In this document: positions 9,411 through 55,366 of the stretch, one piece after another
How the letters are laid out: each line of letters starts with the position of its first letter
Position numbering within the stretch: the stretch's first letter is position 1
The notes under the pieces: generated by a model
Seen by the model: only the letters and a program-made list of their open reading frames with translations
Told to the model about the DNA's origin: nothing
Database searches by the model: none
NCBI GenBank assembly: GCA_902800355.1
Contig: CADCEE010000001.1
Coordinates: 24,625 to 88,624 of the forward strand
Length of the DNA: 64,000 bases
Origin: an uncultured Erysipelotrichaceae bacterium
GTDB taxonomy: Bacteria; Bacillota_I; Bacilli_A; RFN20; CAG-826
Reading direction: 5' to 3'
Program-made: the position numbers and the translations under genes

Positions 9411-9528
9411 ATGTGAGTTTTTCAACTCGCAACAAAGATTATACTTATTTTTAATTATTGTGACAACAATTATTCTAATTATTATTAGAGGGTATCTTTT
9501 TATAAACAAAATTGTATATAATAGATAT

Positions 9529-9606: not shown

Positions 9607-9615
9607 TTTTATAAG

Positions 9616-38232: not shown

Positions 38233-38234
38233 TT

Positions 38235-39320
38235 ATGGATCTATCTACAAAATTTGATGGCTTAGTTCTTAAAAACCCACTTATGCCAGCAGCGGGACCA
38301 CTTGTTGGTGACGCTGAAAAAATGCTTTGGCTTAAAGAACAAGGTTTAGGTGCATTAGTGGCTAAGACCATTTCCACAAAAGACGCTCATATTCCACATC
38401 CATGTATTATCGGAGAAGGAAATAATGCGATCTTTAACTGCGAACTCTGGACAGAATATCCAAAAGAAAAATGGATTAATGAATTCCTTCCAGAATTAGT
38501 GGCGAAAAAAGGAGATACACCTCTAATTATTTCTGTTGGTTACACCAAAGAAGATATGGAAGTCCTTATTCCTGTTTTAGATAAATTTGCGGATGCCTTT
38601 GAAGTGAGCTGCCACTATGTTGGCACTGACCATGAAATGATGGCAGAAGTTGTTAGAACCATTAGAAAGCATACTAAAAAACCTTTCTATATGAAAATCT
38701 CACCACACATCCCTGATCCTGCTCATTTTGCCCACACTATTAAAGAAAATGGAGCTAATGGAGTAGTTGCTATTAACTCCCTTGGTCCTAGCATGGTTAT
38801 TGATGTCGAAAAACGTCAAATGGCCTGTTCAAATGATAAAGGATTTGTCTGGATGTCAGGTCCAGTGGTTAAACCATTAGCTTTAGCTACTGTTTATACT
38901 ATTAAACAAGCTGAGCCATCCTTAACCGTTATTGGTGTTGGTGGAGTTGCTAGCGCTAAAGATGTGATTGAATTCTTATTAGCCGGTGCAAGTGCGGTAG
39001 GTATGCTATCCGCCCCTATGTTAAGAGGCAAAGAATTATATGCTAAAGTCATCGCTGACTTACCAAAAGAATTAGAGAAATATGGATTTAAATCTGTTCA
39101 AGAAGTTATTGATACTCATTTAACAAATAAAGTGACTTATGAACATGAAATGCCTTGTGTTAACAAAGAAAAATGTACTCACTGTGGAATGTGTATGAGA
39201 AACTGCCCATATTTCGCGATTGAAATGAATGAAGAAAAGGTGCCAGTATTTGATGCATCTAAATGTTTTAGATGCGGATTATGTGCCTCTAAATGTCCAG
39301 TTAAAGCTATTAAGTTTTAG
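38235..39320 (+). CDS. Dihydroorotate/dihydropyrimidine dehydrogenase-like flavoprotein with two C-terminal [4Fe-4S] ferredoxin motifs (PreA-like)
   Basis: DHOD class-1 TIM barrel (LKNPLMPAAGP, TIST..., GVGGV), then CTHCGMCMRNCP and CFRCGLCASKCP. RBS aaggag at 38221-38226. Confidence 0.8.
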   Translation: MDLSTKFDGLVLKNPLMPAAGPLVGDAEKMLWLKEQGLGALVAKTISTKDAHIPHPCIIGEGNNAIFNCELWTEYPKEKWINEFLPELVAKKGDTPLIISVGYTKEDMEVLIPVLDKFADAFEVSCHYVGTDHEMMAEVVRTIRKHTKKPFYMKISPHIPDPAHFAHTIKENGANGVVAINSLGPSMVIDVEKRQMACSNDKGFVWMSGPVVKPLALATVYTIKQAEPSLTVIGVGGVASAKDVIEFLLAGASAVGMLSAPMLRGKELYAKVIADLPKELEKYGFKSVQEVIDTHLTNKVTYEHEMPCVNKEKCTHCGMCMRNCPYFAIEMNEEKVPVFDASKCFRCGLCASKCPVKAIKF

Positions 39321-39326
39321 TAAGTA

Positions 39327-41423
39327 ATGAAAATGAAAAAGTTTGATACATCAGTTAAAAAAGTAGATAACGAAGAGAAGATGTCTGGAAGAGCCATCTT
39401 CACTGGCGACATCCAAATGGATGATGCCTATTTCGCTATACAAGTTAGAAGTGAAAAAGCCCATGCGAAGTTAAAAGGAATTTATGTCCCTAAACTTCCT
39501 AAAGATTACTATTTCATTTCTGCAAAAGACATCGTTAAAGAAAACGTTGTGAATATTATTGCTTCCGATTGGCCAGTCTTCGCTGATAAGAAAGTAAATT
39601 ATATTGGTGAGGCTATTGGTTTAATCGTTGGTCCTGATAAAGGCATGTGTATGTATTTAGCAAGCCTAGTCAAAGGGGAATATGAAGAATTAGAGCCAGT
39701 CTTTGAGATGAAGAATTCTTACGTTCATAAAGAATTCACCAAAGGTGACGTCTCTAAATTTAAAAGCGCAAAAAAAGTATTCTCAGAAGAATTCACTACC
39801 GGCTATCAAGAACAAGTCTATTTAGAGCCTCAAGCCATGTTAATGTATATTCAAAACGATCAAATCGTGGTTAAAGCCTCAATGCAGTGTCCTTTCTATA
39901 TCCATAAAGCGATCATGAGAACTTTGGGATGTAAAGAGAAGGATGTAAGAGTCATTCAACCAGCGGTAGGGGGTGCATTTGGTGGTAAGGAACATTACCC
40001 ATCTTTAATGGCTGCTCAACTTGCCACTGCAATTGTGAAAATTAAAAAACCAATTAAGATGTTCTTCGATAGAAAAGAAGACATTACCTATACCACAAAA
40101 CGTCACCCATCTAAGACAGAGATTTCTGCTTATGTGGACGCAAAAAATAACATCATTGGTGTGAAGATTCATGTTGGTATTGATGGCGGAGCGTATGTTG
40201 GTTGCTCTATGGTTGTTTTATCACGTGCTTTAATCGCTGCGACTAATACTTATACATTTGAAAATGTTAGTGTTAGTGGAGATGCATATTGCACAAATAA
40301 AGTTCCAAGTGCGGCATTCCGTGGATTTGGTTCACCTCAATCAATATTCGCATTTGAACTATTTATTAATCACCTTGCTGACTATTTAAAAGTAGACCGC
40401 ATGGAATTAAGAATGAAATATCTTGTAAAACAAGGTGATATCACTTCTACCTCTGGTTTATTTAGAGACCCAATCATCTTAAAAGAACTTGTTGATAAAG
40501 CTATGGAGATGAGTGACTATAAACATAAAGTTAAACTTTATTCTAAAGAAAAATCATATCGCGGAATTGGCTTATCGATGTTCTTGCACGGCTGTGGATT
40601 CACTGGAAGTGGAGAATCCGATTTAATTAAAGCGCAATTAAGAATCAAGAAAGATAAAAACGATATTGTGACTTTCTATACTTCTCAAGTTGATTTTGGT
40701 CAAGGTAATAGAACTACATTAAAAAGAATTGTCGTTGATACTTTAGGTATTCCTGAAGATCACGTCATCTATGACGCCCCTGACACTAATGAAACTCTTT
40801 CTACTGGCCCAACTGCTGCTAGTAGAACTATTATCATCGTTGGTGGACTTGCTGCTAAAGCAGCTCAACATTTAAAGAGCATTTGGAAAGATGGAGAAGA
40901 ACAAGAAATCGTCGAACCATATGTTGGTCCTGCTTATATCAAATGGGATGAGGCCACTATGCAAGGGGACGCTTATCCAGGTTATGCTTGGGGAGTGAAT
41001 ATTGTTGAAGTCTCTGTTGATCCTGTAACATATGAAGTTAATGTTGAAGGCTGTTGGTCAACTTATGACGTTGGACACGCCATTGATGAAAGAATTATCA
41101 TGGGTCAAGCAGATGGTGGCTTAGCGCAAGCCTTAGGCTGGGCATATTTAGAAAAAGAAGTGGCGGAAAACGGAATGTTTAAACAAAGAACAATGTCTGA
41201 TTATGCTATTCCTACCTCTATGGATCTTCCTGTTTTGGAAACTGAAGTCCTTGATAATCCATTTAAATATGGAGCCTTTGGGGCAAAAGGTGCTGGAGAA
41301 TTAACTTTTGTTGGTGGAGCTCCTGCCTTTGCTCTTGCTTTAGAGCAAGCAATTGGCAAAAAAGTCCACGACATTCCAGCCACACCAGAATATATTATGG
41401 AGCTAATGAATCATGAAAATTAG
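39327..41423 (+). CDS. xdhA: Xanthine dehydrogenase-family molybdopterin-binding subunit (XdhA-like)
   Basis: 698 aa. AVGGAFGGKE, FRGFGSPQ and GAKGAGE motifs. Confidence 0.8.
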   Translation: MKMKKFDTSVKKVDNEEKMSGRAIFTGDIQMDDAYFAIQVRSEKAHAKLKGIYVPKLPKDYYFISAKDIVKENVVNIIASDWPVFADKKVNYIGEAIGLIVGPDKGMCMYLASLVKGEYEELEPVFEMKNSYVHKEFTKGDVSKFKSAKKVFSEEFTTGYQEQVYLEPQAMLMYIQNDQIVVKASMQCPFYIHKAIMRTLGCKEKDVRVIQPAVGGAFGGKEHYPSLMAAQLATAIVKIKKPIKMFFDRKEDITYTTKRHPSKTEISAYVDAKNNIIGVKIHVGIDGGAYVGCSMVVLSRALIAATNTYTFENVSVSGDAYCTNKVPSAAFRGFGSPQSIFAFELFINHLADYLKVDRMELRMKYLVKQGDITSTSGLFRDPIILKELVDKAMEMSDYKHKVKLYSKEKSYRGIGLSMFLHGCGFTGSGESDLIKAQLRIKKDKNDIVTFYTSQVDFGQGNRTTLKRIVVDTLGIPEDHVIYDAPDTNETLSTGPTAASRTIIIVGGLAAKAAQHLKSIWKDGEEQEIVEPYVGPAYIKWDEATMQGDAYPGYAWGVNIVEVSVDPVTYEVNVEGCWSTYDVGHAIDERIIMGQADGGLAQALGWAYLEKEVAENGMFKQRTMSDYAIPTSMDLPVLETEVLDNPFKYGAFGAKGAGELTFVGGAPAFALALEQAIGKKVHDIPATPEYIMELMNHEN

Positions 41424-41880
41424 TTTTGTTATTAATAATAAAAAAGTATCTCTCGATGTTGAACCTTCAATGCGTTTATTAGATGTTATTCGTAATGAAT
41501 TACATTTAACAGGCACTAAAGAAGGATGCGGAGAAGGTGAATGCGGAGCATGTACCGTTTTAATTAACGAAGAACCTGTTAATTCATGCTTATATCCAGC
41601 GATAAACGCTGCTAATAAAAACATTATGACTATTGAAGGATTTAGGGAAACTAATGAATATCGAGTCATCGCTGATGCCTTTGCCGATAGAGGTGGATCT
41701 CAATGTGGATTCTGCACCCCTGGCATGATTTTAGTGACTTATTCTTTATTAAAAAAGAATCCTCATCCTAGTGAAGAAGAAATTAGATTTGCTTTATCCG
41801 GTAACTTATGTAGATGTACTGGCTATCAAGCGATTGTTGATGCTGTGAAAGTAGCAGCAGTGAAAGGAATTAAATTATGA
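41413..41880 (+). CDS. xdhC: Xanthine dehydrogenase [2Fe-2S] subunit (E. coli XdhC-like)
   Basis: CGEGECGACT plus CGFCTPG...CRCTGY. Confidence 0.85.
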   Translation: MKISFVINNKKVSLDVEPSMRLLDVIRNELHLTGTKEGCGEGECGACTVLINEEPVNSCLYPAINAANKNIMTIEGFRETNEYRVIADAFADRGGSQCGFCTPGMILVTYSLLKKNPHPSEEEIRFALSGNLCRCTGYQAIVDAVKVAAVKGIKL

Positions 41881-42719
41881 TTCAACATTTTGTTCCTACC
41901 ACATTAAAAGAAGCTCTAAAGATTTTAGATGAGCGTGACTGCTATATTATGGCTGGTGGCACTGATTTAATGGTCCAAAAACATCGAGGCAGTGGTTTGT
42001 TACCTAATTTTGATAAAGACGTATTATATGTGATGAATATTAAAGAACTTGATTATATCAAAACTGACGCGGAAGGTAATTTACGTATTGGGGCGATGAA
42101 TCGATACTGTGAACTTATGAATTCATCGCTAGTCCCAGATATCTTTAAGACCGTATTTAAAGAAATTGCCTCACCTAATATTAGAAATATGGCGACTTTA
42201 GTGGGCAATATTGCTAATGCTTCTCCTGCAGGAGATAGTTTATTACCTCTTAACCTTTTTAACGCACGTGTTGTTTTATCTAGCGTTAAAGGAAATAGAG
42301 AAGTTTTAGTAGAAGACTTCATTCAAGGTGTTAGAAAGATTGACCGTCAGAAAAATGAATTAATTACTGAAGTGATTATTCCTAATTGCGACTTAAATTT
42401 CTACTATCGAAAAGTCGGTTCTAGAAAAGCAGAATCTATCACTAAAGTTTCGCTTATGGGCGGCTATAAAATTGAAGGCGGAAAGATTAAAGATTTACGT
42501 ATTGTTTTTGGAAGTATTTCCGTAAAAGTCGTCAGAAATCACTTTATTGAAGAGAAATATCAAGGAAAATCCGTTAATGAGTTAAGAGCGAGAATCGATG
42601 ATATCATTAACGAATATGACCATGAAATCAAACCAATTACTGACCAAAGATCAACGATGGAATATCGTAAAAAAGTTGCTAAGAATTTGTTGAGGGATTT
42701 CCTCAAACATGTCAAATAA
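41877..42719 (+). CDS. xdhB: Xanthine dehydrogenase FAD-binding subunit (XdhB-like)
   Basis: 280 aa. IMAGGTDLMV FAD motif and a CO_deh_flav_C-like C-terminus. Confidence 0.8.
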   Translation: MIQHFVPTTLKEALKILDERDCYIMAGGTDLMVQKHRGSGLLPNFDKDVLYVMNIKELDYIKTDAEGNLRIGAMNRYCELMNSSLVPDIFKTVFKEIASPNIRNMATLVGNIANASPAGDSLLPLNLFNARVVLSSVKGNREVLVEDFIQGVRKIDRQKNELITEVIIPNCDLNFYYRKVGSRKAESITKVSLMGGYKIEGGKIKDLRIVFGSISVKVVRNHFIEEKYQGKSVNELRARIDDIINEYDHEIKPITDQRSTMEYRKKVAKNLLRDFLKHVK

Positions 42720-42737
42720 ATTTAAAGGAGGTGGGCA

Positions 42738-43982
42738 ATGAATTATATTAAAGGATACCGCTGTACAATCTGTGGAAAATTCTTTGAAACTCAAGAAGCA
42801 CTTTTAACCTGCCCTGATTGCGGTGAAAAAGGCATTTTAGATGTTGAATATGACTATGAAGCCCTTAAAAAAGTCTTAACGAAAGACTATTTTGAGAAAA
42901 ATCGTAACTATTCAATGTGGAGATACGCTCCGCTTATGGGTATTAAAGAAGATCACATAGATGAAATGCTTCGTATCGGCTGGACTCCACTTGTGAAGTC
43001 GCGTAATTTAGCTAAAGAGTTAGGAATTAAAGAACTCTATATTAAGGATGACGGACTTAATCCAAGTGGAAGTAGCAAGGATAGAGCTAGTGGAGTAGCG
43101 GTACTTAAAGCCATTGAAGCAGGAGCGAAAGTTATATCCTGTTCTTCTACTGGAAACGCTGCTAGTAGCTGTGCTTGTCACGCTGCTCATATGGGTTTAC
43201 CTGCAGTAATTTTTGTTCCTAAACGTGCTCCAATTGGTAAATTAACTCAAATCTCTTTATATGGAGCCACATTAGTAATTGTGGATGGAGATTATAAAGC
43301 TGCATTTAGCTTATCTAAACAAGCAATTGCAAGACATGGTTGGTATAACCGAAATGCCGCCATTAATCCATTTATGGTGGAAGGCAAAAAGACAGTTTCA
43401 TTAGAAATTGCCGAACAACTTAATTTTAAACCGACTGATTGGGTGGTTGTCTCCGTAGGAGATGGCTGTACAATTGGTGGAGTTTATAAAGGTTTTAATG
43501 AACTTCATAAGTTAGGTCTTATTTCTAGAGTTCCACGAATCTTAGGTGTGCAGTCTACAGGCTGCGAACCATTCGTTGTTGCTGCTAAAAATCATGAACC
43601 TCTTAAGGAATGTGATGAGAATACTTTAGCGGATAGTATCGCGGTTGGTATTCCAAGAAATCCAATTAAAGCTCTTAGAGCGGTTGAATACTCTAAAGGC
43701 GCTTGGATTAGTGTTCCTGATGAAGAAATCATTAAAGCTATGGGTTTATTAGGAAAAACTGAAGGTATCTTTGGAGAACCTGCAGGTGTCACAGGAGTGG
43801 CAGGACTTGCTAAAGCTCTTAAAGAAGGAATCATCAAAAAAGATGAATCAGTTACTATAATTGTCACTGGTAACGGACTGAAAGATCCTAATAACGCTCA
43901 AAAGGCCATCGTTAAGCCAGACTTAATGGAGCCAAACATTGAAAAGTTAGACATTTACTTAAAAGAAAAAGGAGTAATTTAA
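42738..43982 (+). CDS. Fold-type II PLP enzyme, threonine-synthase-like, with an N-terminal zinc ribbon
   Basis: CTICG...CPDCG ribbon. The LNPSGSSKDRAS PLP-lysine motif resembles NPTGSFKDR. 414 aa. Confidence 0.65.
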   Translation: MNYIKGYRCTICGKFFETQEALLTCPDCGEKGILDVEYDYEALKKVLTKDYFEKNRNYSMWRYAPLMGIKEDHIDEMLRIGWTPLVKSRNLAKELGIKELYIKDDGLNPSGSSKDRASGVAVLKAIEAGAKVISCSSTGNAASSCACHAAHMGLPAVIFVPKRAPIGKLTQISLYGATLVIVDGDYKAAFSLSKQAIARHGWYNRNAAINPFMVEGKKTVSLEIAEQLNFKPTDWVVVSVGDGCTIGGVYKGFNELHKLGLISRVPRILGVQSTGCEPFVVAAKNHEPLKECDENTLADSIAVGIPRNPIKALRAVEYSKGAWISVPDEEIIKAMGLLGKTEGIFGEPAGVTGVAGLAKALKEGIIKKDESVTIIVTGNGLKDPNNAQKAIVKPDLMEPNIEKLDIYLKEKGVI

Positions 43983-43984
43983 AT

Positions 43985-45352
43985 ATGTCAAAAATCCCAT
44001 TTGGTCCAACATATGATGAAATGTTGAACCCAAGCCATCAAGACCCTGAAGTAAGAAAAAAGGCATTGAAGGCAAAAGAAGAGAATGAACTCGATCCAAT
44101 CAATCTCTTTAACATTACTTGGAAAAATGAAAAGGACGAAGTTAACAAGATTGTGCTTCCAAAAGCCTTAACTGGTGTAGAAGCAAATATCGTTGTCTTA
44201 CTTGGTAAATATTTCCCAAGTGGATCTCATAAGGTCGGACCTGCCTATTCCACCTTAATCGAAGGATGTGTCGATGGAGAAATTATCCCAGGAAAACACA
44301 CAATTTTAGGTCCAAGTACTGGTAACTTCGGTATCGGAGTTAGTTATATAACTAACTTAATGAAGTATGACGCGATTGTCATTATGCCAGACAATATGTC
44401 TAAAGAAAGATATCAAAGAATTCAAAAGTATGGAGCAAAATTAGATTTAACTCCAGGTAGTGAATCTGACGTTATCTTAACTTTAGAGAGAACTTACGAA
44501 TTAAAGAAAGATCCAAAAAATAGAACATTGGCTCAATTTGAATTATTACCTAACTATCGTTTCCATAGACACGTCACCGGTAATAGCTGTATCGAAGCTG
44601 TTAAGGGCATTGGTAATGGTAGAATTGCCGCTTTCTGTAGCGCTCCTGGTAGTGCAGGAACTTTAGCAGCTGGTGATCAAATCAAAGTGGCATTCCCAGA
44701 ATGTAAAATCGTTGCTTTAGAACCACATGAATGTAGTACACTCACCAATGGTGGTCGTGGACAGCACCGTATTGAAGGTATCGGAGATAAGATGTGTACA
44801 TTAATCCACAACGTCTTAACTACCGACTTCATTACTCAAATCGTTGATGATAACTGTGTAAGAGGCTTAGAAGTTATTCACGAAGGTACTGATATCTTAG
44901 TGAAACACGGAGTGGACAAGAAAGTGGCCGAATCTATGGTCAACTTATTCGGTGTCTCCGGTATTTGTAATATCTTAGGTGCCATTAAAATGGCAAAATA
45001 CCTCAAATTAGGTCCTGAAGATAACGTTGTCACTATCGCTACTGATAGCTTTGATAGATATGACTCTGTTATTGAAAATTTAAAAGAAAGAGAATTAGAA
45101 GTTACTCCTAACGTCTTAGAAAGATGGTTTGAAGACGTCTTTATGGGCGCGGATACTTCTATGGTTTTAGATACACGTGGTAAAGAAGCTAAAGAAGCCT
45201 TATTCGCTCAAAAAGAAAAAGACTGGTTACCATTTGGTTATTCTAAAGAATATCTCGATAGCATGAAGAAACCAGAATTCTGGGAAGAAGAATATAACAA
45301 GATTCATGCTTACGATAAAAAGATTAAGGAACTTAGAGGAAAGGAAATTTAA
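43985..45352 (+). CDS. Fold-type II PLP enzyme (cysteine synthase/Trp-synthase-beta-like), function unknown
   Basis: [12 protein letters not shown] lysine motif and a Gly-rich phosphate loop ([12 protein letters not shown]). 455 aa. Confidence 0.55.
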
Positions 45353-45354
45353 TA

Positions 45355-46569
45355 ATGAAAGTACCTTTTGAAAAAGTATTAGAAAAAGCCCAAGCCTATA
45401 AGGCTGACATGGTCAAATTCCTCAGAGACATGGTCGCTATTCCTTCTGAATCATGTGAAGAAAGAGATGTCGTTCTCCGCATTAAAGAAGAAATGGAAAA
45501 AGTAGGATTTGATAAAGTTGTTATCGATCCAATGGGAAATATCTTAGGATATATTGGACACGGCAAACACCTTATTGGTATGGACGCTCATATTGACACT
45601 GTCGGTATTGGCGAAATCAAAAACTGGACATTTGATCCTTACAAAGGATTTGAAGATGATGTCCATATCGGTGGTCGTGGCACTTCTGACCAAGAAGGCG
45701 GTATGGCCTCAATGGTCTACGCTGCTAAAATCATTAAGGATTTAGGTTTAGAAGATGACTATACCTTAGTGATTACCGGTACAGTACAAGAAGAAGACTG
45801 TGATGGACTTTGCTGGCAATATATTATCGAAGAAGATAAAGTCAGACCAGAATTCGTCGTTTCTACTGAACCAACCAGCTGTAGAATTTATCGTGGACAT
45901 AGAGGAAGAATGGAAATCAAAGTTTCTGTTCGTGGTATCTCTTGCCATGGCTCTGCCCCTGAAAGAGGCGATAACGCCATCTATAAGATGGCACCAATCA
46001 TTGAGCAAGTTAAAGAACTCAATGAAAAAGGACTTGCTTATGACCCATTCTTAGGTAAAGGTACAGTCACTATTTCTCAGATCTTCCATAAATCACCATC
46101 TAGATGCGCAGTTGCTGATGGCTGTTGGATCTCTTTAGATAGAAGATTAACAGTGGGTGAAAACGATAAAACCTCTATCGCGGAAATCGAAGCTCTTCCA
46201 GGAGTTAAAGCCGCTAACGCCAAAGTTGAGATGTATCGTTATGAAAGACCATCTTATACTGGTTTACTTTACCCAACAGAATGTTATTTCCCAACTTGGG
46301 TCATTCCTGAAGAATCAGTATTTGTCCAATCCATGAAACAAGGATATGAAGGCTTATTTAAAAAAGCCCCTGTTATCGATAAATGGACATTCTCCACTAA
46401 TGGTGTTTCCATTATGGGAAGATACGGTATTCCTTGTATCGGATTTGGTCCAGGTGATGAAAAAGAAGCTCACGCACCAAATGAAAAAACTAGAAAAGAA
46501 GACCTCGTTATCTGTGCAGCAATGTATGCAGTTTTACCAGGCCTCTATCTAGAAAATTTAAAGAAATAA
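45355..46569 (+). CDS. ygeY: YgeY-like M20-family hydrolase
   Basis: 404 aa. M20 metal ligands ([23 protein letters not shown], the final HAPNE). The neighbourhood is that of YgeY in E. coli. Confidence 0.75.
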
Positions 46570-46597
46570 TTTATTAAGAAAGGATATAAATTAAATT

Positions 46598-47608
46598 ATG
46601 GAAAAAGTCGCACCAAGATTTGCTGGTAGACACTTAATTACTTTAGAAGATTTCACCAAAGAAGAAATCGACTACATGCTCAAAGTCTCTAGAGACTTAA
46701 AAAATGCATTCTATGCTAATGAACCAACAGATTGGCTCACTAACAAAACCGGATTCTTAATGTTCTTTGAACAATCCACAAGAACCCGTAACTCCTTTGA
46801 AAGTGGTATGGCCCAATTAGGCGGACACGCTACCTTCTTAGACACCTCTATGATGCAAATCGCTCACGGAGAAAGCGCCAAAGATACTGCAGTTATCTTA
46901 TCTAGCTTTGGCCACATGATTGCTTGCCGTTATTGTAACTGGGGTTTAGGTAACAAATATATTCGCGAAATGGCGAAATATTCCACAGTCCCAATTATCA
47001 ACTTACAATGTGATTTATATCACCCAATGCAAGCTCTTGCAGATTTAATGACCATCGAAGATGAATTCGGTCATACTGAACACTTAAAAGTATCTGTTAT
47101 TTGGGCAATGGCTACAACTCATAAGAAACCAATTTCTGTTCCAGTTTCTCAAGTCTTGCTCTTCCCAAGATACGGAATTGATGTCACTCTTGCTTATCCA
47201 GAGGGATATGATTTACCAGACTGGGTTATTGAAAAAGCTAGAAAGAACGCAGCTGAACATGGTGGTAGTTTAACTATTACCCATGATATGGATGCCGCTT
47301 ATAAAGACGCTGATGTCGTCTTCCCTAAGAACTGGGGTAGCTGGGTTACTAACCAATCCACAACCGTTGTTGATGATGCCTTATTAGCCTTAAAAGCTTG
47401 GAAATGTACTCCAGAAAAGATGGCTTTAGCAAAACCTGGATGTAGATATATGCACGCTCTTCCAGCTGATAGAGTTAACGAAGTCGTTGATGAAGTTATT
47501 GATGGACCACAATCTGTTGTTTATCAAGAAGCTGAAAATAGAATCCACACTGCTAAAGCAGTCATGGCATTATTTGTCCACGATAAACTCCCATCTGATA
47601 GAAGATAG
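46598..47608 (+). CDS. Carbamoyltransferase of the ATCase/OTCase superfamily, non-OTC (YgeW-like; substrate unknown)
   Basis: The STRTRNSFE carbamoyl-phosphate motif, HPMQ and HALPA are present. The ornithine-binding DxxxSMG motif is absent. Confidence 0.65.
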   Translation: MEKVAPRFAGRHLITLEDFTKEEIDYMLKVSRDLKNAFYANEPTDWLTNKTGFLMFFEQSTRTRNSFESGMAQLGGHATFLDTSMMQIAHGESAKDTAVILSSFGHMIACRYCNWGLGNKYIREMAKYSTVPIINLQCDLYHPMQALADLMTIEDEFGHTEHLKVSVIWAMATTHKKPISVPVSQVLLFPRYGIDVTLAYPEGYDLPDWVIEKARKNAAEHGGSLTITHDMDAAYKDADVVFPKNWGSWVTNQSTTVVDDALLALKAWKCTPEKMALAKPGCRYMHALPADRVNEVVDEVIDGPQSVVYQEAENRIHTAKAVMALFVHDKLPSDRR

Positions 47609-47633: not shown

Positions 47634-48266
47634 ATGAAAGATATCAAAAAGTTCATGGGACTCATTTTAGTGTCCCTCGCGATTATCTTTGGCGTTCTCG
47701 TCATGGTTGATCAATATAAGCTATTTGAATCATTAGGTAGCCTATCATTCGCTAGTAGACCTGAAATTGGAACATCTATTACTGTTATCTTATATTTATT
47801 AACAAATGTTCTCTTATTAGTGGTTCCAATTGTTAACTTATTATTACTTATCTTTAACAAAAGAGAACCATATAAGGCTATTGTTAAATGTGCGATTGTT
47901 ATCGTTGCTAAATTCTTATTTATTATCTTTATCGATATCATTGTCTTAATGATTGTCGGTGTTAGTGGAGAAGCTTGGAGCGAATACTTATTTGGTGGTA
48001 ACAGCTTAGCTATCGTTAGAGTCTTAATCTTTGGTGCTGGCTTATTATTAGTAGAACTCTCTGGTATGAAGTCTTTAGAAGGCAAAATGGCTAGAGCCGT
48101 ATTAATTACTGTCGGTGCGGGATTAACAATCTTTGGCTTAATCTTCTACTATGCAAAAGGTACAGAAATGAATGCCTTACAAATCTTAGGCTTAATCAGC
48201 GCGATTGCTTGCTTAGGCGGACTCGTTGTTTACTCTTTCTTACCTCAAACTAGAGAATACAAATAG
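47634..48266 (+). CDS. Small polytopic membrane protein (about 6 TM), last gene of the purine operon
   Basis: 210 aa and almost entirely hydrophobic helices. No family recognised. Confidence 0.55.
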   Translation: MKDIKKFMGLILVSLAIIFGVLVMVDQYKLFESLGSLSFASRPEIGTSITVILYLLTNVLLLVVPIVNLLLLIFNKREPYKAIVKCAIVIVAKFLFIIFIDIIVLMIVGVSGEAWSEYLFGGNSLAIVRVLIFGAGLLLVELSGMKSLEGKMARAVLITVGAGLTIFGLIFYYAKGTEMNALQILGLISAIACLGGLVVYSFLPQTREYK

Positions 48267-48287
48267 TTGATACTTAATAGTAAAGAA

Positions 48288-48314
48288 ACTGGTGGAGCAA
48301 TCCATCAGTTTTTA
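48288..48314 (+). terminator. Rho-independent terminator of the purine operon
   Basis: Stem actggtgg/ccatcagt followed by ttttt. Confidence 0.7.
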
Positions 48315-48345
48315 TTTATTTCATTTGTTAGTTTGCTATAAAAAA

Positions 48346-48469
48346 ATCGCCAGAGGTGGAGAACCAGTGTGCGACCTCGACGCATTCCTTCGGGAATGGA
48401 TGTAGCGATCCAGGATGTTAACTGCCATGGCTGACGAATAAGTATCTTCCAATCGGGAGATATTTTTTT
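48346..48469 (+). ncRNA. Candidate small RNA (about 120 nt) of unknown class, ending in its own terminator
   Basis: A locally GC-rich island with no ORF. An internal cattcc-UUCG-ggaatg hairpin lies at 48383-48398. The terminator stem is tatcttcc/gggagata (48443-48462) plus a 7-T run. A second hairpin, acgcgta/tacgcgt, follows at 48479-48496. Confidence 0.4.
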
Positions 48470-48674
48470 ATTCTTTTTACGCGTATGCCTACGCGTGCGA
48501 TTTTCTATTATAATAATTTATATATTTATTATTTTTTTATATTTCTAATATGAAAAATTAATAAAAATCACTAATATATTGCGAATATTCAAATTATTTT
48601 CAAAAAAGTAATTTAACAAAGTTAAATTAAAAATGTATTAATAAAAAAAGTGAAAAAATATTTAAAAAAAACGC

Positions 48675-48703
48675 TTGAAATAGTTTTCTAAAAGGCGCAT
48701 ACT
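48675..48703 (+). promoter_or_regulatory. Putative promoter of the giant RNA: TTGAAA-17 nt-CATACT, preceded by about 170 nt of extreme AT-rich DNA
   Basis: Hexamers at 48675-48680 and 48698-48703. Confidence 0.4.
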
Positions 48704-48767
48704 TGTAGACATCCAACACCGAAAGGCGCTTGGGTGAGAGTAAATTAATGATAGTTAATTAACTCTC

Positions 48768-49077
48768 AAGACTGGATAAGTCAATCACCGCGAAAAGAAG
48801 AAGTTGATACAGCGGACTACTAAGAATTAAAACAAGAATCTTAGACTAATGATTGCTCCAGCACGATAGATCTTCAGATTTATCAAGGCACATCCTCCCC
48901 GTTACAGTGGACGCTGAGTTAGAACTTAACAGCTGAAAAACCACCGCCTGACAAGATCAAAGAGGACCGATATGAGGTAATAGCCATATCCACGACCGAA
49001 TCACGCTAAAATCAACTTAAAACGTGAAATAAGTAATTGAGATTGCAAGATACTCAATACGAAAAAGGTTCGAAGTT
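48768..49077 (+). repeat. Module 1 of the tandem RNA repeat
   Basis: Anchors are aagactgg...tcaatca, gaattaaaaca, taatgattgc, cctccc, ctgagttagaacttaacag, ccaccgcctgacaagatcaaagagg and tcaacttaaa. Confidence 0.7.
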
Positions 49078-49400
49078 CAGCTAACGTCAGACAATCAGCC
49101 CATTACACGACGTTGATAGTAAGGCATCTAGAATTAAAACATCTAGTTAATGATTGCAGTTAACTTGGCATTAGTAATAATGACTAAACGGCCTACCTCC
49201 CTTCTAAAGTGGTCACTGAGTTAGAGCTTAACAGTGTAGAAAATCCACCGCCGGACACGATCAAAGAGGTAAAAAAGAAGTCCTATTAACTAAAAAGAAT
49301 AGGAAAAGCCTAATCCACATTATTCAACTCAAAGTGTGGTGAGACTTAGAAAGATCACAAACTCCTGGTACTTTCTAAGCAGAAACGGATTAATAAGCTT
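49078..49400 (+). repeat. Module 2 of the tandem RNA repeat
   Basis: The same anchors appear in the same order: acaatca, gaattaaaaca, taatgattgc, cctccc, ctgagttagagcttaacag, ccaccgccggacacgatcaaagagg and tcaactcaaa. Confidence 0.7.
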
Positions 49401-49700
49401 AAGACTAGGTAAGACAATCAGGTCCTTGAATTGAGTGGGGACCTCTGGAAATTAAAAGCTTCCAGTTAAATGATTGCACTAGCAAAGGGTTAGAAGAGAT
49501 TCTAATCATCGGTACGTTCCTCCCTGATGGCAACATCACTGGTCTCCGCGTTAAAGTTTGACGGAGTAAACCCAGCACCGGACATGACAAAGAGGAAAAC
49601 AGCCTTGAAGTTAATAACTAAAGGAAGCTGGCCATCGATACGCTATTCAATTCAAAACGTATCAAAATCAAGAAGCACCACCAGCCAAAAGGAACTTAAC
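49401..49700 (+). repeat. Module 3 of the tandem RNA repeat (most diverged)
   Basis: Anchors are aagactagg...acaatca, aaattaaaag, aaatgattgc, cctccc, a hairpin ctccg/cggag in place of gctg/cagc, caccggacatgacaaagagg and tcaattcaaa. Confidence 0.65.
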
Positions 49701-49745
49701 TTGGATGTTGTGACAGGGTGAAAATCCCTGCACAATATAACGGTT

Positions 49746-49773
49746 AGCGGAAAAGAGAAAATCCGCTTTTTTT
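49746..49773 (+). terminator. Rho-independent terminator at the end of the giant RNA
   Basis: Stem agcgga/tccgct with a 10-nt loop, followed by a 7-T run. Confidence 0.75.
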
Positions 49774-49810
49774 CTGCCCTTTTTGTTTAGCAGTCTTCAA
49801 CACAAAGTGC

Positions 49811-49841
49811 TTGCTTCTCTCTCTCTCTCTATTCTTATAAT
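49811..49841 (+). promoter_or_regulatory. Putative promoter TTGCTT-19 nt-TATAAT whose spacer is mostly a (CT)7 dinucleotide tract
   Basis: TTGCTT 49811-49816, (CT)7 49817-49830, TATAAT 49836-41. An RBS (aagaggag) and the ATG at 49872 follow. Confidence 0.5.
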
Positions 49842-49871
49842 TAAAACAATTATAAAGAGGAGAGATTTTTT

Positions 49872-51326
49872 ATGAATAAAAAGAAAACTCTATTATTACT
49901 AACCACAATTGCGACATCTTTAGCGGTTGGCACTATCGCATTGATGCCTCATAATGAAGAAACATCCTCCTTGATGTTAAACTCTGCAAAAAGAGGTGTG
50001 ACGAATTCATTAACCATTAGTAATAATTTATATTTACTTAGTAGCACGTATAAAACATATCGTGTTGTTACTTCTAATGGTAACTACGTGAAATTGTGTG
50101 TTCGTGGCGAATATAGCACGTTTGCACAAAATAGCAAAATTAGATTAACTGGTACTGGATATATTAACGTTGAAAAAGAAGACAGTACTTATCATGCGAT
50201 TACCGGTATTGAATCAATCACTGTTAATTATGTAAGATGTCCTGATTATATCAGCGCTCCTAGTGTGACTGAGGCTGGGCAAGCAGGAGATTTATCTATT
50301 CAATGGGGATATGTTGATTCTTCGGGGAATTTATTATATGAAAGCGCTAGAAGTGTCTCTCCTAGCGAAGCTCTTGATTTAAGCGATGTCTCCCCTAGAT
50401 ATTTCAAGCTCAACAAGGTGTGGAACGCCACTAATAGTGCAATTCTTATTCAATCCATCACTATTAACTACACCTGTAGTGAATCTATTGATGATAAATC
50501 AATCCTAGACTCTAAATTTGATTCTGTTTACGCTACTGATCCAGTCAAAAATGGTAATATTTGGACTTATGGATATTATCCACAAACACTTGTTGATCCA
50601 GATTCAGAAGTTGGATATAAACTATATAGCTTATATGATGAGTCTTGGACTAAATTAACTAATGGATATTACTTTGTAAATAATAAAGCATACGCTAGAG
50701 TGCAAGCCAAGAGTACTGGATATAACAACGAATATGTCATTGATGATTATTATTGGTTTGAAGTAGAACCAGTAACATGGAAATTCTTAGATTATAAGTA
50801 CAATAAGAGCACACTTAAAAAGTTATGTAATGTAGTCGTTTCTGAAAAGGTTTTAGGCACATCAGTATTTGATGTAGCAGGTAACAATCCAACCAGCTAT
50901 ACAGTTAGCACAGCACTTGGACAATTTATGAATGAACTATATAACAAGATGTTACCGGCTAGCAAAAGCACCAGAATATACAATTACGAATTAAGTGGTG
51001 GACCAGAAAACTATAGTCCATATACTGGAATGTTCCCATTAACATATACAACCTTATATGATTCTGATAGTAAGTGGGGCTTACATAATCAAACCGACAG
51101 AATTGCTTATTCCACTGACTATGCTAGAAGTCAAGAATATGATTTCCTTTCAAGCGGTTACGCTGAAAGCGATGGCAAAATTTCTATGCATTATTGGTCA
51201 AGAAGCTTTAATAGCGGAAAGCCATGGCACGTTAGAGCAGACGGAGGATGCTATACAACCATAGTTGAATATTCTAACTATATTGGTGTTAGACCAGCCT
51301 GTAGAATAGTGGAATCAGGTTACTAA
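49872..51326 (+). CDS. Secreted or anchored protein with a DUF6273-like C-terminal region
   Basis: N-terminal signal/anchor MNKKKTLLLLTTIATSLAVGTIAL. The C-terminus has HYWSRS...GVRPACRI, which resembles the WLRS...GVRPA signature as I recall it. Confidence 0.6.
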   Translation: MNKKKTLLLLTTIATSLAVGTIALMPHNEETSSLMLNSAKRGVTNSLTISNNLYLLSSTYKTYRVVTSNGNYVKLCVRGEYSTFAQNSKIRLTGTGYINVEKEDSTYHAITGIESITVNYVRCPDYISAPSVTEAGQAGDLSIQWGYVDSSGNLLYESARSVSPSEALDLSDVSPRYFKLNKVWNATNSAILIQSITINYTCSESIDDKSILDSKFDSVYATDPVKNGNIWTYGYYPQTLVDPDSEVGYKLYSLYDESWTKLTNGYYFVNNKAYARVQAKSTGYNNEYVIDDYYWFEVEPVTWKFLDYKYNKSTLKKLCNVVVSEKVLGTSVFDVAGNNPTSYTVSTALGQFMNELYNKMLPASKSTRIYNYELSGGPENYSPYTGMFPLTYTTLYDSDSKWGLHNQTDRIAYSTDYARSQEYDFLSSGYAESDGKISMHYWSRSFNSGKPWHVRADGGCYTTIVEYSNYIGVRPACRIVESGY

Positions 51327-52102: not shown

Positions 52103-55100
52103 ATGAAAAGTAAACATTTGCGATTCTTAGCTTTGCCTATCGTTTCACTATTACTATTTGGATGTACAACTTCTCCTAAAAAAGAGGATATTTTTGATGG
52201 CACCGATACACCAGTTGTTGAGCATCAACATACTTTTAGTGACTCATGGTCTTTTAATAATCAAACCCACTGGCACGCTTCTACATGTGAACACAGTGGA
52301 ATAAGAAAAGATGAGGAACTCCATGATTTTGATGTAGTGGAGACTCCTGCTACTTTTGAAAAAGAAGGCAAGTTGGTTTATACATGTAAAGTTTGTTACT
52401 ATTCTGAAACTAAGATTACTCCAGTGCTCACACATAACTATTCTTCTTCCTGGGAAAGCGATCGTACTAGTCATTGGCACACTTGCTCTGATAAAGGATA
52501 TGAAAGCGTCCGCAAAGATTTAGAGGATCATTCTTTTGTTGAAACAATTACAAAACCTACATTTGAACTAGACGGATTAAAAGAATATACTTGCTCTATT
52601 TGTGGCTATTCTTATTCAATAAGCATCCCAAAACTCACACACTCATATTCAAGTGATTGGGATTACGATGAACATGGTCATTGGCATCACTGTATCGATG
52701 AAGGATACACCGATGATGTAGTTGACTACGCTATTCACGATTATGAAATAGAAACTGTGTCTCCTACTTATGAAGAAGCAGGCCGCACAATTTATACTTG
52801 TAAGGAATGTGAATATTCTTATTATGTTGAAATTAATCCAATCGACCACAATTATTCTGACAAATACGCTAGTGATGATGAAGGTCATTGGCATCCATGT
52901 ATCGATAAAGGTTACGAAGATTTAAAGGGTGATTATGAAAAACATACCTTCTCTTCTGAGGTAGTGGATCCAACTTACACTTCTGAAGGATTCACTGTTC
53001 ATACTTGTGAAGAATGTGGTTTTAAATATACCGATGAAAAAGTAGATAAACTAGAACATCATTACTTTGATAAATGGGAAAATGATGCATGGGGTCATTG
53101 GCACATTTGTAGTGATGAAGGATATGATGATTTAAAAATTGGCTATTCCTCGCATAATTATGATTCAGAAATTGCAGTACAACCAACAATGTTTGAAGCT
53201 GGCGTTGAAAAATTTACTTGTGAAGAATGTGGTTTCACATACACAAAGAAAGTTCCATCATTTTATGAGCAATGTATCAATAGCTGCGATTATAGATTGG
53301 TTGATAACTCGTACTATCGTTTGTTTAAAGTGCCAGAAAACATCAGCGTTGTTTATGTCCCTGATGAATATAATGGATTGCCGGTTAGACAATTAGATTC
53401 TCACTGTTTACATTCTAATGTTACCGAATTGCATTTAGGAAGGAATGTGACTTCTGTACAATATTATGAGTTATATTGGTACGCTCCTAATATCGAAGTA
53501 TTGGAATTAAATGATTATTTTACTTATGTTCCATTCTATTTTTATAACTTGTCTAAACTCCGAGAAATCTATTTTGGTAATTGTGAGGAAATTAGCTTTT
53601 ATCAATTTTCGCAACTATCGACTTTTAAAACGATAAGAGTTAGCAAAGATAATTCTCGTTTTACTGAATCTGATGGTGCTATTTATGACAAAGGGATGAC
53701 AACATTATATTTCTGTCCGCGAGACAAAGAAGGGACTTTTGTTTTGCCAGATTCAGTCACTAATATTTATGAATATGCATTTGCGTATTCTGGTATTACA
53801 TCAATTGATTTATCTTCAGTAAATACTATTTCAAATTACGCATTTGCGTATTCGGGTATTACATCAATTGATTTATCTTCAGTAACTTACATTAACAATT
53901 ATGCATTTTATCATTGTGAAGAATTGAACTCTGTTATTCTTCCAACAAACTCTAATTACGCCCTTCACTATCATTCATTTGAATATTGCTCAAATTTAGA
54001 AGAGATAACACTCAGTGCTAATCCGTATTCATCTTCTGATGAGGTGTTTTATGAATGCGAAAGCATTTCCAAACTCAATATCGGTAAAAATGTAACTTAC
54101 TTTCCGTCTTCTCTTTTCAAGAATGCATGTATCACAGAAGTCACTATTGAAGACGAAAATAATGCTTTATGTGTTAAAGATGGCTTTTTATTAGACTCTT
54201 CCCAATTCGAATTATATATGTGTATAGACAAAAACGCTTCCAATATTATAGTTCCTGATTCAGTTCAAGTTATTAATTCATTTGCATTTGCTAATTGTTC
54301 TATGGAATCTATTGATTTAAATAATACTGATAATTCTAATGAAGGTTGTTTTTATAATTGTGTCAATCTTAAAGAAGTTGACTTATCTAAAGATTGCAAT
54401 AGTGCCTATTATCGTATGTTTTACAATTGCCAGTCTTTAAAAAGAATAATTTTATCAGAGAATATTAGGCGTCTTGATAACCAATGTTTCTACAATTGTT
54501 TTGCTCTAGAAGAAATTGTTGGATTAGATCGATGTACTGCTATTAATAAAGGATGCTTTGAAAATTGTAATCAAATGATTCATTCTTATGGGAACATCAA
54601 ATATGTTGGTAATCCGGATAACCCATATTGTGTTGCCCTAGGACCAGATAGTGATTATTTTGAATCAGATATTATTGAATTTGTGGATGATTGTGAAATA
54701 GTTGCTTCCGAAGCTTTTAGCTATCTTCTTACTAATTACATTATTGGTAACAACGGTTACACAGTTAAATTAAATAACGTTAAGTCATTAAGCAATTATT
54801 GTTTTAGAGGAACATCAATTATCAATATTGATTTTGGAACATCATTATCATATATAGGCAGTTATGCTTTTTCCTACACTCAGATATCCTCATTAGTCTT
54901 ACCTGATACACTTACTACTATTGAATATTGTGCGTTTAGCAATTGCACGAATTTAGCTTCGATTTTTATTCCAAAATCTGTAACTTATATCAATGAAATC
55001 ACCTTCAATTATGACTATAACATTACTAGCATTGTAGTTGAAGAAGGCAGTCAATATTTTGAAGTGTATAAAAATGCTTTATATTCAATAAACTCAAAAC

Positions 55101-55366
55101 AATTAATATTTGATTTTTCTTTCTCAGATACTTTGATTGTCAAAAAAGATACTGTCTACGTTAACTGGTATTTTTTGGATGGCAGAGATTCTTATGTAAC
55201 ACCAATAGCGACTATTTTTTATGAGCATACCGAAGAGGAATATTATCAATGTGGTTTTTCAAATTCGAATTCATATTTAATAAGCAATGCGAAAAGATAT
55301 TTCTATTCTGAAACCCCTCAAGTCGATTGTTGGCATTATGTTGAAGGAGTACCGACATTATGGTAA
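52103..55366 (+). CDS. Large surface lipoprotein with five N-terminal Cys/His-rich ~69-aa repeats followed by BspA-type leucine-rich repeats
   Basis: Lipobox LLLFGC. There are five copies of H.Y...W..D...HWH.C.D.GY...(10)...H.F...(9)..PT...G...YTC..CGY.Y. The C-terminal 700 aa have repeated I.IP..V..I...AF..C..L..I units. Confidence 0.75.
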   Translation: MKSKHLRFLALPIVSLLLFGCTTSPKKEDIFDGTDTPVVEHQHTFSDSWSFNNQTHWHASTCEHSGIRKDEELHDFDVVETPATFEKEGKLVYTCKVCYYSETKITPVLTHNYSSSWESDRTSHWHTCSDKGYESVRKDLEDHSFVETITKPTFELDGLKEYTCSICGYSYSISIPKLTHSYSSDWDYDEHGHWHHCIDEGYTDDVVDYAIHDYEIETVSPTYEEAGRTIYTCKECEYSYYVEINPIDHNYSDKYASDDEGHWHPCIDKGYEDLKGDYEKHTFSSEVVDPTYTSEGFTVHTCEECGFKYTDEKVDKLEHHYFDKWENDAWGHWHICSDEGYDDLKIGYSSHNYDSEIAVQPTMFEAGVEKFTCEECGFTYTKKVPSFYEQCINSCDYRLVDNSYYRLFKVPENISVVYVPDEYNGLPVRQLDSHCLHSNVTELHLGRNVTSVQYYELYWYAPNIEVLELNDYFTYVPFYFYNLSKLREIYFGNCEEISFYQFSQLSTFKTIRVSKDNSRFTESDGAIYDKGMTTLYFCPRDKEGTFVLPDSVTNIYEYAFAYSGITSIDLSSVNTISNYAFAYSGITSIDLSSVTYINNYAFYHCEELNSVILPTNSNYALHYHSFEYCSNLEEITLSANPYSSSDEVFYECESISKLNIGKNVTYFPSSLFKNACITEVTIEDENNALCVKDGFLLDSSQFELYMCIDKNASNIIVPDSVQVINSFAFANCSMESIDLNNTDNSNEGCFYNCVNLKEVDLSKDCNSAYYRMFYNCQSLKRIILSENIRRLDNQCFYNCFALEEIVGLDRCTAINKGCFENCNQMIHSYGNIKYVGNPDNPYCVALGPDSDYFESDIIEFVDDCEIVASEAFSYLLTNYIIGNNGYTVKLNNVKSLSNYCFRGTSIINIDFGTSLSYIGSYAFSYTQISSLVLPDTLTTIEYCAFSNCTNLASIFIPKSVTYINEITFNYDYNITSIVVEEGSQYFEVYKNALYSINSKQLIFDFSFSDTLIVKKDTVYVNWYFLDGRDSYVTPIATIFYEHTEEEYYQCGFSNSNSYLISNAKRYFYSETPQVDCWHYVEGVPTLW

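Follow-up and report, generated by a model that had tools for sequence, protein, structure and literature searches.

A predicted 1,064-nt structured noncoding RNA of ruminant-gut Bacilli with three paralogous, pseudoknotted domains built around the cow-rumen-1 motif

Large and intricately folded noncoding RNAs (ncRNAs) of bacteria are rich sources of new biochemistry. To our knowledge, few bacterial ncRNAs are both so large and so intricately folded, namely rRNAs, RNase P, group II introns, OLE, GOLLD and ROOL. ROOL and GOLLD often locate in prophages or beside tRNAs. The glycine riboswitch contains tandem homologous aptamers of about 100 nt, which belong to 5′ leaders, have an expression platform and serve a conserved regulon. 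The sponge RNAs CsrB and RsmZ act in trans and repeat one short GGA hairpin (about 15–20 nt), bound by a CsrA-family protein, many times, in a number that varies between species. ROOL averages 581 nt (PMC5737381), and ROOL, GOLLD and OLE form RNA-only homo-oligomers (PMC12286853). A much shorter RNA, the cow-rumen-1 motif, was introduced by Weinberg et al. 2017 (PMC5737381), the main text of which carries no discussion of it. We found no other discussion of cow-rumen-1 in the literature searched, the supplementary text of the 2017 paper lying outside the search. Here we analyse a stretch of 64,000 nt from an uncultured Erysipelotrichaceae bacterium (contig CADCEE010000001.1; referred to as the window, whose positions are used below). 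Comparative evidence shows its + strand at 48710–49773 to be a free-standing gene for a structured ncRNA of about 1,064 nt, belonging to uncultured ruminant-gut Bacilli and containing the cow-rumen-1 motif three times.

The predicted RNA is laid out as a two-hairpin leader, three paralogous domains (modules) of about 310 nt, and a 3′ hairpin with a terminator. Each module carries one full-length match (model positions 1–61) to the cow-rumen-1 model, RF02946, on the + strand: at 48904–48965 with 71.1 bits in module 1, at 49206–49269 with 70.7 bits in module 2, and at 49536–49595 with 75.3 bits in module 3. The model has 61 positions, a gathering score of 53.4 bits, and the Rfam type "Gene; sRNA" (small RNA). 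The Rfam scan of 48200–49900 at E≤10 returned nothing besides cow-rumen-1, and in particular no OLE, GOLLD, ROOL, raiA, HEARO, riboswitch, T-box, RNase P, tmRNA, 6S or intron. An earlier interpretation of the window, made from its letters and open reading frames (referred to as the sequence-only reading), had recognised no signature of a riboswitch, T-box, RNase P, tmRNA, 6S or intron, which agrees with the scan. Its description of the RNA as an unrecognised family does not stand, as RF02946 matches three times above threshold. It had also named a match to a known family as evidence against its proposal. Such a match is found, but we do not take it as a refutation, because the model spans only 61 nt out of a module of about 310 nt and Rfam lists it as an independent sRNA. 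The match identifies a fragment and does not explain the RNA.

The cow-rumen-1 match corresponds to hairpin D of the sequence-only reading together with the block CCACCGCCKGACA..GATCAAAGAGG, once per module. The window RNA and the Rfam motif share the stem P1, the bulged hairpin, the conserved tail CCGGACAcGAUCGAAGAGG and the rumen environment. They differ in extent, as the Rfam entry is a 61-nt sRNA, whereas here the motif forms the core of each of three domains, about 310 nt long, in one transcript of 1,064 nt. Stem P1 and the bulged hairpin are 93–100% paired in all three modules, with changes on both sides. We do not find the motif as a stand-alone sRNA of about 61 nt: it is internal to the 1,064-nt unit and always present in 3, 5 or 7 copies. 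The tail, "unpaired" in the model, pairs outside the 61-nt model in helix C and helix T, while the hairpin loop and the inner 3 bp of the model pair about 150 nt downstream, in a pseudoknot described below as PK1. This comparison corrects the scope of RF02946, the annotated "sRNA" being only a fragment of each domain.

We notice that the 5′ strand of PK1 shares bases with the inner 3 bp of the RF02946 hairpin (48917–48926, 49219–49228 and 49549–49558). In modules 1 and 2 these inner pairs covary in part (GC41/AU9/GU9), and they cannot form in module 3, where one pair is CU in 54 sequences. These base pairs may represent alternative conformers, or the model may have been built on too short a window.

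The structure was analysed in an alignment (A2) of 61 homologues that are pairwise <96% identical, made with MAFFT. A curated structure of 231 pairs in 45 helices was obtained from RNAalifold and a scan for covarying column pairs. In the alignment, 93.3% of the paired cells form standard pairs, compared with 81.2 ± 0.2% in shuffled alignments (0 of 500 reach the observed value) and 30–43% when the structure is slid by 1–3 columns. Changes on both sides occur in 167 pairs (111 shuffled, 57–73 slid) and in 1,912 cells (535 shuffled, 146–243 slid), and the covariation score is 0.391 (0.167 shuffled, 0.06–0.08 slid). Beyond the 231 nested and pseudoknot pairs there are 17 further pairs, and the pseudoknot helices number nine in total. 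At 1,064 nt, with no conserved open reading frame (ORF), multiple junctions, pseudoknots and covariation, the RNA shows the descriptive features of an ornate ncRNA. The strand is indicated by the paired cells, which include 700 G-U against 240 A-C; this fits an RNA of the + strand, the orientation that the sequence-only reading had drawn from G-U pairs.

Each domain folds on itself and consists of a 5′ sub-domain (helices Ma, Mb and Mc, hairpins A and B) and a 3′ sub-domain around cow-rumen-1 (C, P1, D, E and F). In module 1 (48770–49078, +), the 5′ sub-domain is formed by Ma (48770–75/48858–62), Mb (48780–87/48850–56), Mc (48788–91/48812–15), hairpin A (48820–44) and hairpin B (48865–84). Its 3′ part contains helix C (48893–97/48962–66), the cow-rumen-1 stem P1 (48907–10/48941–44), hairpins D (48912–35), E (48969–90) and G (49033–60), and helix F (49000–05/49023–28). 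Module 2 (49079–49400, +) repeats this plan with Ma (49079–84/49160–65), Mb (49092–97/49151–56), Mc (49098–100/49123–25), the hairpins A (49128–46), B (49167–84), D (49214–36), E (49281–304), F (49314–40) and G (49345–79), helix C (49196–99/49266–69) and P1 (49209–12/49245–48), together with a helix X (49308–10/49387–89). Module 3 (49401–49697, +) comprises Ma (49403–08/49479–83), Mb (49413–20/49471–77), Mc (49421–26/49438–43), hairpins A (49445–65), B (49488–507), D (49545–65), E (49603–24) and F (49636–64), helix C (49517–21/49593–97) and P1 (49539–42/49572–75), as well as an extra hairpin (49525–38) and a helix H (49627–31/49681–85). The pair that closes its tail, 49576:49592, has only two states among the homologues, CG (36 sequences) and UA (25). 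One invariant GGA is present per module, located in the junction loop CCGGACA.

The two sub-domains are locked together by three pseudoknots within each domain, namely helix T across helix C, PK1 and PK2. In PK1, the loop of hairpin D (GARCUU) is paired with the last bases of its own module (AAGYUC), with strict two-state covariation. In module 1 (48922–49078, +), GAACUU at 48922–27 pairs with AAGUUC at 49073–78, 98% of the cells being paired, and adjacent pairs read AU43/GC17 and CG43/UA16. In module 2 (49224–49400, +), GAGCUU at 49224–29 pairs with AAGCUU at 49395–400 (99% paired; GC46/AU13 and CG46/UA13). The equivalent in module 3 (49554–49697, +), AAGUUU at 49554–59 with GAACUU at 49692–97, is 99% paired with few double changes; an alternative register at 49698–702 fits more poorly and was set aside.

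PK2 joins the Mc loop GUUGAU with the F loop AUCAAC. In module 1 (48802–49017, +) it pairs AGUUGAU at 48802–08 with AUCAACU at 49011–17, which is 96.5% paired with a terminal pair of UA29/CG21/UG7. In module 2 (49112–49328, +), GUUGA at 49112–16 and UCAAC at 49324–28 are 100% complementary but invariant; this copy is uninformative alone and is supported by its homology with modules 1 and 3. In module 3 (49429–49652, +), AAUUGA at 49429–34 and UCAAUU at 49647–52 are unlike the sequences of modules 1 and 2 yet complementary (97% paired, UA47/UG8/CG6). Helix T is made by MGGY, immediately 5′ of helix C, and RCCK within the tail of cow-rumen-1. In module 1 (48886–48949, +), AGGC at 48886–89 pairs with GCCU at 48946–49, crossing helix C as an H-type pseudoknot, and the equivalents on the same strand are 49189–92/49250–53 in module 2 and 49509–13/49577–81 in module 3. 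Helix T is 96.2% paired, compared with 88.6% in shuffled and 10–59% in slid controls. The informative pairs include GC36/AU15 and CG47/AU5/UA2/GC2, and the module 3 copy is nearly invariant.

Most of the elements proposed from the single sequence are recovered by this comparison. The boundaries drawn at 48768, 49078, 49401 and 49700 match the structural ones given above. Helix C and hairpins D and F of every module lie where the sequence-only reading placed them, as do A in module 2, B in modules 2 and 3 and E in module 3; by pair counts, all of these are conserved with compensatory changes. The other cases, hairpin A in modules 1 and 3, B in module 1 and E in modules 1 and 2, are of variable length and align poorly; when the 61 homologues are folded one by one, at least 98% of them form each of these hairpins, with folding energies far below those of shuffled sequences. 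Two of the conserved blocks listed by that reading, GACAAUCA and UGAUUGC, are the two strands of helix Mb. Its summary of a structured RNA of about 1.06 kb, with three homologous modules and its own promoter and terminator, is supported comparatively. The helix proposed to close the whole molecule (48709–16 with 49701–08) is present in the window and is not conserved, as 6 of its 8 positions are only 19–58% paired among the 61 homologues. We dropped it; the 5′ end instead makes a local covarying hairpin.

A scan of all alignment column pairs reveals no convincing pairing between modules, and the clean non-nested signals all lie within one module. The inter-module correlations that it returned are G-U-rich only, of the kind that shared ancestry produces, and none was accepted. 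RNAalifold proposed long-range helices at 48945–51/49509–16, 48898–99/49742–43 and 49074–78/49395–99. None of them shows a compensatory change, and helix T and PK1 within each module took their place; these predictions are explained by the complementarity that homologous pseudoknot strands have across modules. We notice one fairly clean two-state correlation between columns 533 and 904 of A2 (positions 49076 and 49359; UA41/CG12/UG2). Position 49076 is a base of the PK1 3′ strand of module 1 and 49359 lies in the loop of hairpin G of module 2, and their neighbours are not in helix register. A base triple might account for this correlation, as might shared ancestry.

Relatives were collected with a degenerate pattern from the tail of modules 1 and 2, which gave 35 stretches in a species-representative genome collection. 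Cow-rumen-1 matches are present in 29 of the 35, where the RF02946 model finds 94 further matches. These stretches belong to 25 metagenome-assembled genomes (MAGs) from the rumen of cow, buffalo, goat and reindeer, which carry the label Bacilli, Bacillales or Erysipelotrichaceae. The other six, without a covariance-model match, are chance matches to the pattern. A pattern specific for module 3 gave 94 stretches in metagenome contigs, making 123 related loci with the genome set. Nearly all complete loci have exactly three cow-rumen-1 matches on one strand, spaced by about 300–320 and then about 318–335 nt. Identity between the window RNA and that of the genome RUG11432 (locus L026) is 96% or more, and the flanks are only 89–92% identical to those of L026 and L029.

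The triplication that gave the three domains is ancient, and positions 1, 2 and 3 have stayed distinct since then. In an alignment of 89 modules, the nearest module in another locus has the same position in 75 of 75 cases, which indicates that the triplication is ancient and is not a minisatellite. Between loci, modules of the same position are 0.66, 0.69 and 0.74 identical for positions 1, 2 and 3, compared with 0.46–0.55 across positions and 0.51 between modules within a locus. The three modules of the window align mutually with a mean column identity of 69%, and as copies they are too diverged for Tandem Repeats Finder to report an array.

Position-specific hidden Markov models (HMMs) resolve about 100 arrays with the order 1-2-3, about 13 with 1-2-1-2-3, and one (L061) with 1-2-1-2-1-2-3, so that (1-2)n-3 is the sole module grammar found. 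The 5-module arrays (L009, L019 at 1045–2766, L042, L052, L068, L072, L078, L085, L089, L117, L123 and L125) measure about 1.69 kb. The a and b copies of each module in these RNAs are only 67–72% identical, which argues that the duplications giving the extra modules are old. PK1 is retained in every extra module of the longer RNAs, none having fewer than 5 of its 6 pairs. A repeat number varying as freely as that of a neutral minisatellite had been named by the sequence-only reading as an observation that would speak against it; we find the fixed (1-2)n-3 grammar and old copies instead.

The gene has a sigma-70-type promoter and its own intrinsic terminator, its neighbours are not conserved, and it is often present in several copies per genome. 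A consensus scan places the promoter at 48675–48703 (+), with the −35 element TTGAAA at 48675–80, a 17-nt spacer and the −10 element CATACT at 48698–703, and an A-rich tract lies upstream at about 48655–48672 (+), in the same alignment columns across loci. In an alignment of 25 loci, the A-tract, a TTGACR/TTGCAA hexamer and a cATACT/TAtAAT hexamer with a 17-nt spacer fall in common columns. The promoter and the terminator bound the predicted transcript at 48710–49773 (+). Its leader begins with hairpin P1 (48713–48734, +), consisting of CCAA/UGGG, an inner stem and a GAAA-type loop (91% paired, 4 of 4 pairs changing on both sides). It is followed by hairpin P2 (48735–48768, +), with an outer stem UGAGA/UCUCA, an inner stem AAUUAAU/GUUAAUU and a conserved YGAUAR loop. 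The two stems of P2 are 87% and 99% paired in the 61 homologues, and 11 of 12 pairs change on both sides.

The 3′ hairpin (49710–49735, +; UGUG-A-CAGGG/CCCUG-CACA) is followed by a conserved ACGGUUA (49739–45). This hairpin varies in length and aligns poorly (41–44% paired in the alignment); folded sequence by sequence, it forms in 98% of the homologues, with a mean energy of −13.8 kcal/mol versus −5.0 kcal/mol for shuffled sequences. The terminator (49746–49773, +) has the stem GCGGA/UCCGC and a T-run. It is 95% paired, all 5 of 5 pairs change on both sides, and the T-run is conserved; a simple terminator scanner missed it, as its loop is too long for that program. The downstream alignment of the loci shows the same order of variable hairpin, ACGGUUA, covarying terminator stem and T-run. 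Both the promoter candidate and the terminator had been predicted by the sequence-only reading, and the promoter aligns with one conserved in all homologues. A pairing of the leader P1 loop (AACCG) with ACGGUUA was judged by eye only and dropped, the complementary letters standing at non-homologous positions.

Several genomes carry more than one locus, and RUI564 has four arrays. Whole RNA genes, each with its own promoter and terminator, stand in tandem in L038, L056, L081, L106, L107 and L122. Further loci listed for tandem or dispersed multiple copies are L039, and the pairs L017 and L019, L013 and L024, L008 and L027, and L028 and L035.

Signs of expression come from 28 contigs of 17 Joint Genome Institute (JGI) samples, which carry at most 60 nt outside the RNA. 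The first base of these RNA-only contigs lies 0–30 nt past the predicted start and the last base ahead of the terminator stem or inside it, and neither the promoter nor the T-run is present in any of them. Contigs of about 1,680–1,690 nt among them have the size predicted for the 5-module RNA. Two further contigs from samples of this type carry at most 151 extra nt. In all other samples and whole-genome shotgun (WGS) sets, 50 of 50 contigs include flanking DNA, even when as short as 1,082 nt. A separation of samples as clean as this is expected if some are metatranscriptomes and the others metagenomes. Repeat collapse during assembly was rejected as a source, since flanked and RNA-only contigs never share samples. 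From this pattern we infer that the RNA-only contigs are assembled transcripts from metatranscriptomes, and the RNA appears to be abundantly transcribed in uncultured rumen Bacilli. Three RNA-only contigs, L057 (1–1189), L068 (1–2364) and L063, are chimeras in which the RNA is joined to an inverted or repeated piece of itself, which has the appearance of misassembly from a highly abundant transcript.

The locus occupies a gap of 1.6 kb (48267–49871) between a membrane-protein gene ending at 48266 and a gene starting at 49872, in which the longest ORF has at most 64 amino acids (aa). The longest ORF in 62 non-redundant homologues has a median of 62 aa, compared with 72 aa in shuffled sequences, and a coding function for the locus finds little support. 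The GC content rises from 0.135 in the spacer 48500–48699 to 0.39–0.44 over the RNA (about 48700–49700), and A exceeds T throughout the + strand of this region. Upstream lies a long same-strand operon (35627–47608) resembling an anaerobic purine/xanthine catabolism cluster. It encodes two amidohydrolases, a dihydroorotate (DHO)-dehydrogenase-like Fe-S protein, three xanthine-dehydrogenase-type subunits, two pyridoxal phosphate (PLP) enzymes, an M20 peptidase and a carbamoyltransferase. Downstream are a 484-aa secreted protein without Pfam match (49872–51326) and a BspA-type leucine-rich repeat (LRR) surface protein (52103–55366); the first of these genes is on the strand of the RNA and begins 100 nt beyond the terminator. 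The lack of a credible ORF, the drop in AT content from about 48705, and the purine operon and surface-protein locus on either side had all been pointed out from the sequence and are borne out here.

Across the 63 loci compared, no neighbouring gene is conserved, and the recurrent neighbours include no phage-like family, transposase or integrase. The commonest neighbour family is a Cthe_2159/Big_2 surface protein at 13 of 63 loci, and the remainder are ordinary metabolic genes. Large secreted or surface-protein genes near the RNA (e.g. L118 622–2931) are mostly downstream on the same strand, and elsewhere they are of the Cthe_2159 carbohydrate-binding and Big_2 kind. Their recurrence may reflect only how common such genes are in these genomes.

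Other elements were noticed in the window. A GC-richer element of about 150 nt (48318–48470, +) sits between the terminator of the membrane-protein gene (48284–48313) and the AT-rich spacer, with a predicted fold of −45.8 kcal/mol (z −2.75), a terminator-like hairpin of its own with a T-run at its end (48440–48465), and a second such hairpin after it (48478–48497). It has no Rfam match, and only the close relatives L026, L010, L029 and L082 keep it, at 88–94%, with equal conservation of their entire flank; the element might be a remnant or a gene for a small RNA. Between the RNA terminator and the ribosome-binding site of the secreted-protein gene, a perfect (TC)7.5 run of dinucleotides occupies 49816–49830. 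Two tRNA genes (− strand) beside a small signal recognition particle (SRP) RNA gene (+ strand, 64.9 bits) at 9257–9618 are ordinary and unrelated to the RNA.

How might such an RNA work? All long-range pairs detected are intra-domain, and the 5- and 7-domain variants have intact domains, which suggests that the domains are autonomous folding units strung on one transcript. Our best guess, and the most likely role, is that the RNA acts in trans as a multivalent platform. It would offer three (or five, or seven) copies of one invariant surface to a shared partner, whether a protein, a different nucleic acid or further molecules of the RNA itself. Among the elements of this surface would be the loops CCGGACAYGAUCRAAGAGG, at the junction, and AUUAAA, in hairpin A. 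Taken as a whole, a structured three-domain ncRNA gene with autonomous domains serving as a trans-acting platform is the account we hold to be probable. Several points weigh against it. The single-sequence folding energies are unremarkable (z −0.7, −1.1 and −1.4 per module), so that the case rests on comparative evidence, which in turn uses a plain MAFFT alignment of related sequences that inflate the shuffle statistics; the slid controls answer part of this. Covariation is blind to tertiary contacts between modules, such as A-minor interactions, and the missing inter-module pairs are accordingly not proof of autonomy. The platform role is drawn from sequence comparison, and the putative metatranscriptome origin of the RNA-only contigs is read from the contig pattern. 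Finally, module 3 has an extra hairpin, helix H and a tail shorter by 1 nt, and each position is conserved as itself; with positions so diverged and separately conserved, the domains are not simply interchangeable binding sites.

This last feature keeps alive a different explanation, as position-specific conservation of modules 1, 2 and 3 would fit asymmetric roles in one assembly. The domains would pack into a closed pseudo-symmetric particle, or the RNA would multimerise like ROOL, GOLLD and OLE, and the architecture would need no protein partner. Three paralogous domains on one chain have the look of a fused ancestral homo-oligomer, and the size, junctions, pseudoknots, rumen/Firmicutes setting and apparent high expression resemble the homo-oligomeric ornate RNAs (PMC12286853). 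However, the 5- and 7-module variants with intact domains are hard to square with a strictly closed three-fold particle, the column-pair scan detected no inter-module covariation, similarity to ROOL, GOLLD or OLE is absent from the Rfam scan at E≤10, and there is no link to phages or tRNAs, unlike ROOL and GOLLD. We therefore consider it rather unlikely that an ancestral homo-oligomeric RNA of about 310 nt was fused by tandem duplication into three specialised domains forming a pseudo-symmetric RNA-only particle, maybe one that multimerises. If true, the 5- and 7-domain genes would be alternative stoichiometries. The RNA would then parallel what tandem-domain fusion does for oligomeric proteins, and it would naturally connect the single-chain ornate RNAs with the homo-oligomeric ones. 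Much less credible is a cis-acting leader, whose modules would be tandem ligand-sensing, riboswitch-like aptamers controlling terminator read-through into the secreted-protein gene. The position of that gene on the same strand, 100 nt past the terminator, fits such a leader, as do the Cthe_2159/Big_2 genes near 13 of 63 loci, mostly downstream on the same strand, and the existence of tandem homologous aptamers such as those of the glycine riboswitch. Yet the downstream genes differ in most loci, whole RNA genes stand in tandem with their own promoters and terminators, the terminator looks constitutive with no conserved competing anti-terminator, the apparent transcripts stop at it, and 1 kb far exceeds any known riboswitch. 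That the locus is non-functional, as a DNA-level tandem repeat, decayed mobile element or pseudogene with incidental hairpins, we regard as barely conceivable: the variable module number (3, 5 or 7), the several copies per genome and the weak folding z-scores agree with it, but they are set against hundreds of compensatory changes, a conserved promoter and terminator, no Tandem Repeats Finder array, identity of about 51% within a locus with orthology by position across species, and the lack of an ORF, of transposase or integrase neighbours, and of any phage or plasmid match.

Returning to the trans-acting platform, the comparison with described RNAs helps to define what is unusual here. Like ROOL, GOLLD, OLE and raiA, the predicted RNA is large and ORF-free, with many multistem junctions, covarying pseudoknots and apparent abundance; with ROOL it also shares an origin in Firmicutes or the rumen. 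In contrast to these, it is longer than the 581-nt average of ROOL, matches no Rfam model of ROOL, GOLLD, OLE, raiA or HEARO in the region scanned, and consists of three paralogous domains on one chain, whereas ROOL, GOLLD and OLE are each a unique fold that homo-oligomerises (PMC12286853). A search of viral contigs, phage records and plasmids gave no match to the RNA, and the nearest tRNAs in the window are 39 kb away, which sets it apart from ROOL and GOLLD; conserved partner genes of the kind described for OLE are likewise lacking among its neighbours. Tandem aptamers of the glycine type resemble it in placing duplicated homologous structured domains side by side, an arrangement that could by analogy give multivalency or cooperativity. 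The window domains differ in being about 310 nt long, three or more in number, equipped with their own terminator and followed by genes that are not conserved. CsrB and RsmZ, with a repeated element in species-variable number, may serve as a working analogy for the mechanism; they differ in that the repeats here are 310-nt pseudoknotted domains.

The locus would thus add a member of about 1.06 kb, with unusually strong comparative support, to the large and intricate bacterial ncRNAs. Only the 61-nt core had been catalogued. In the literature searched, the 2017 supplement apart, we found no description of the size, the tripartite paralogy, the pseudoknots, the 5- and 7-domain variants or the apparent expression, and no bacterial ncRNA made of three anciently duplicated, separately conserved, triple-pseudoknotted domains with 5- and 7-domain versions. 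Other short motifs derived from metagenomes may likewise be pieces of larger RNAs. The architecture bears directly on the recent finding of ornate RNAs as homo-oligomers, and the RNA offers a defined target for cryo-EM and chemical probing. Its apparent high expression in uncultured rumen Bacilli makes a physiological relevance likely.

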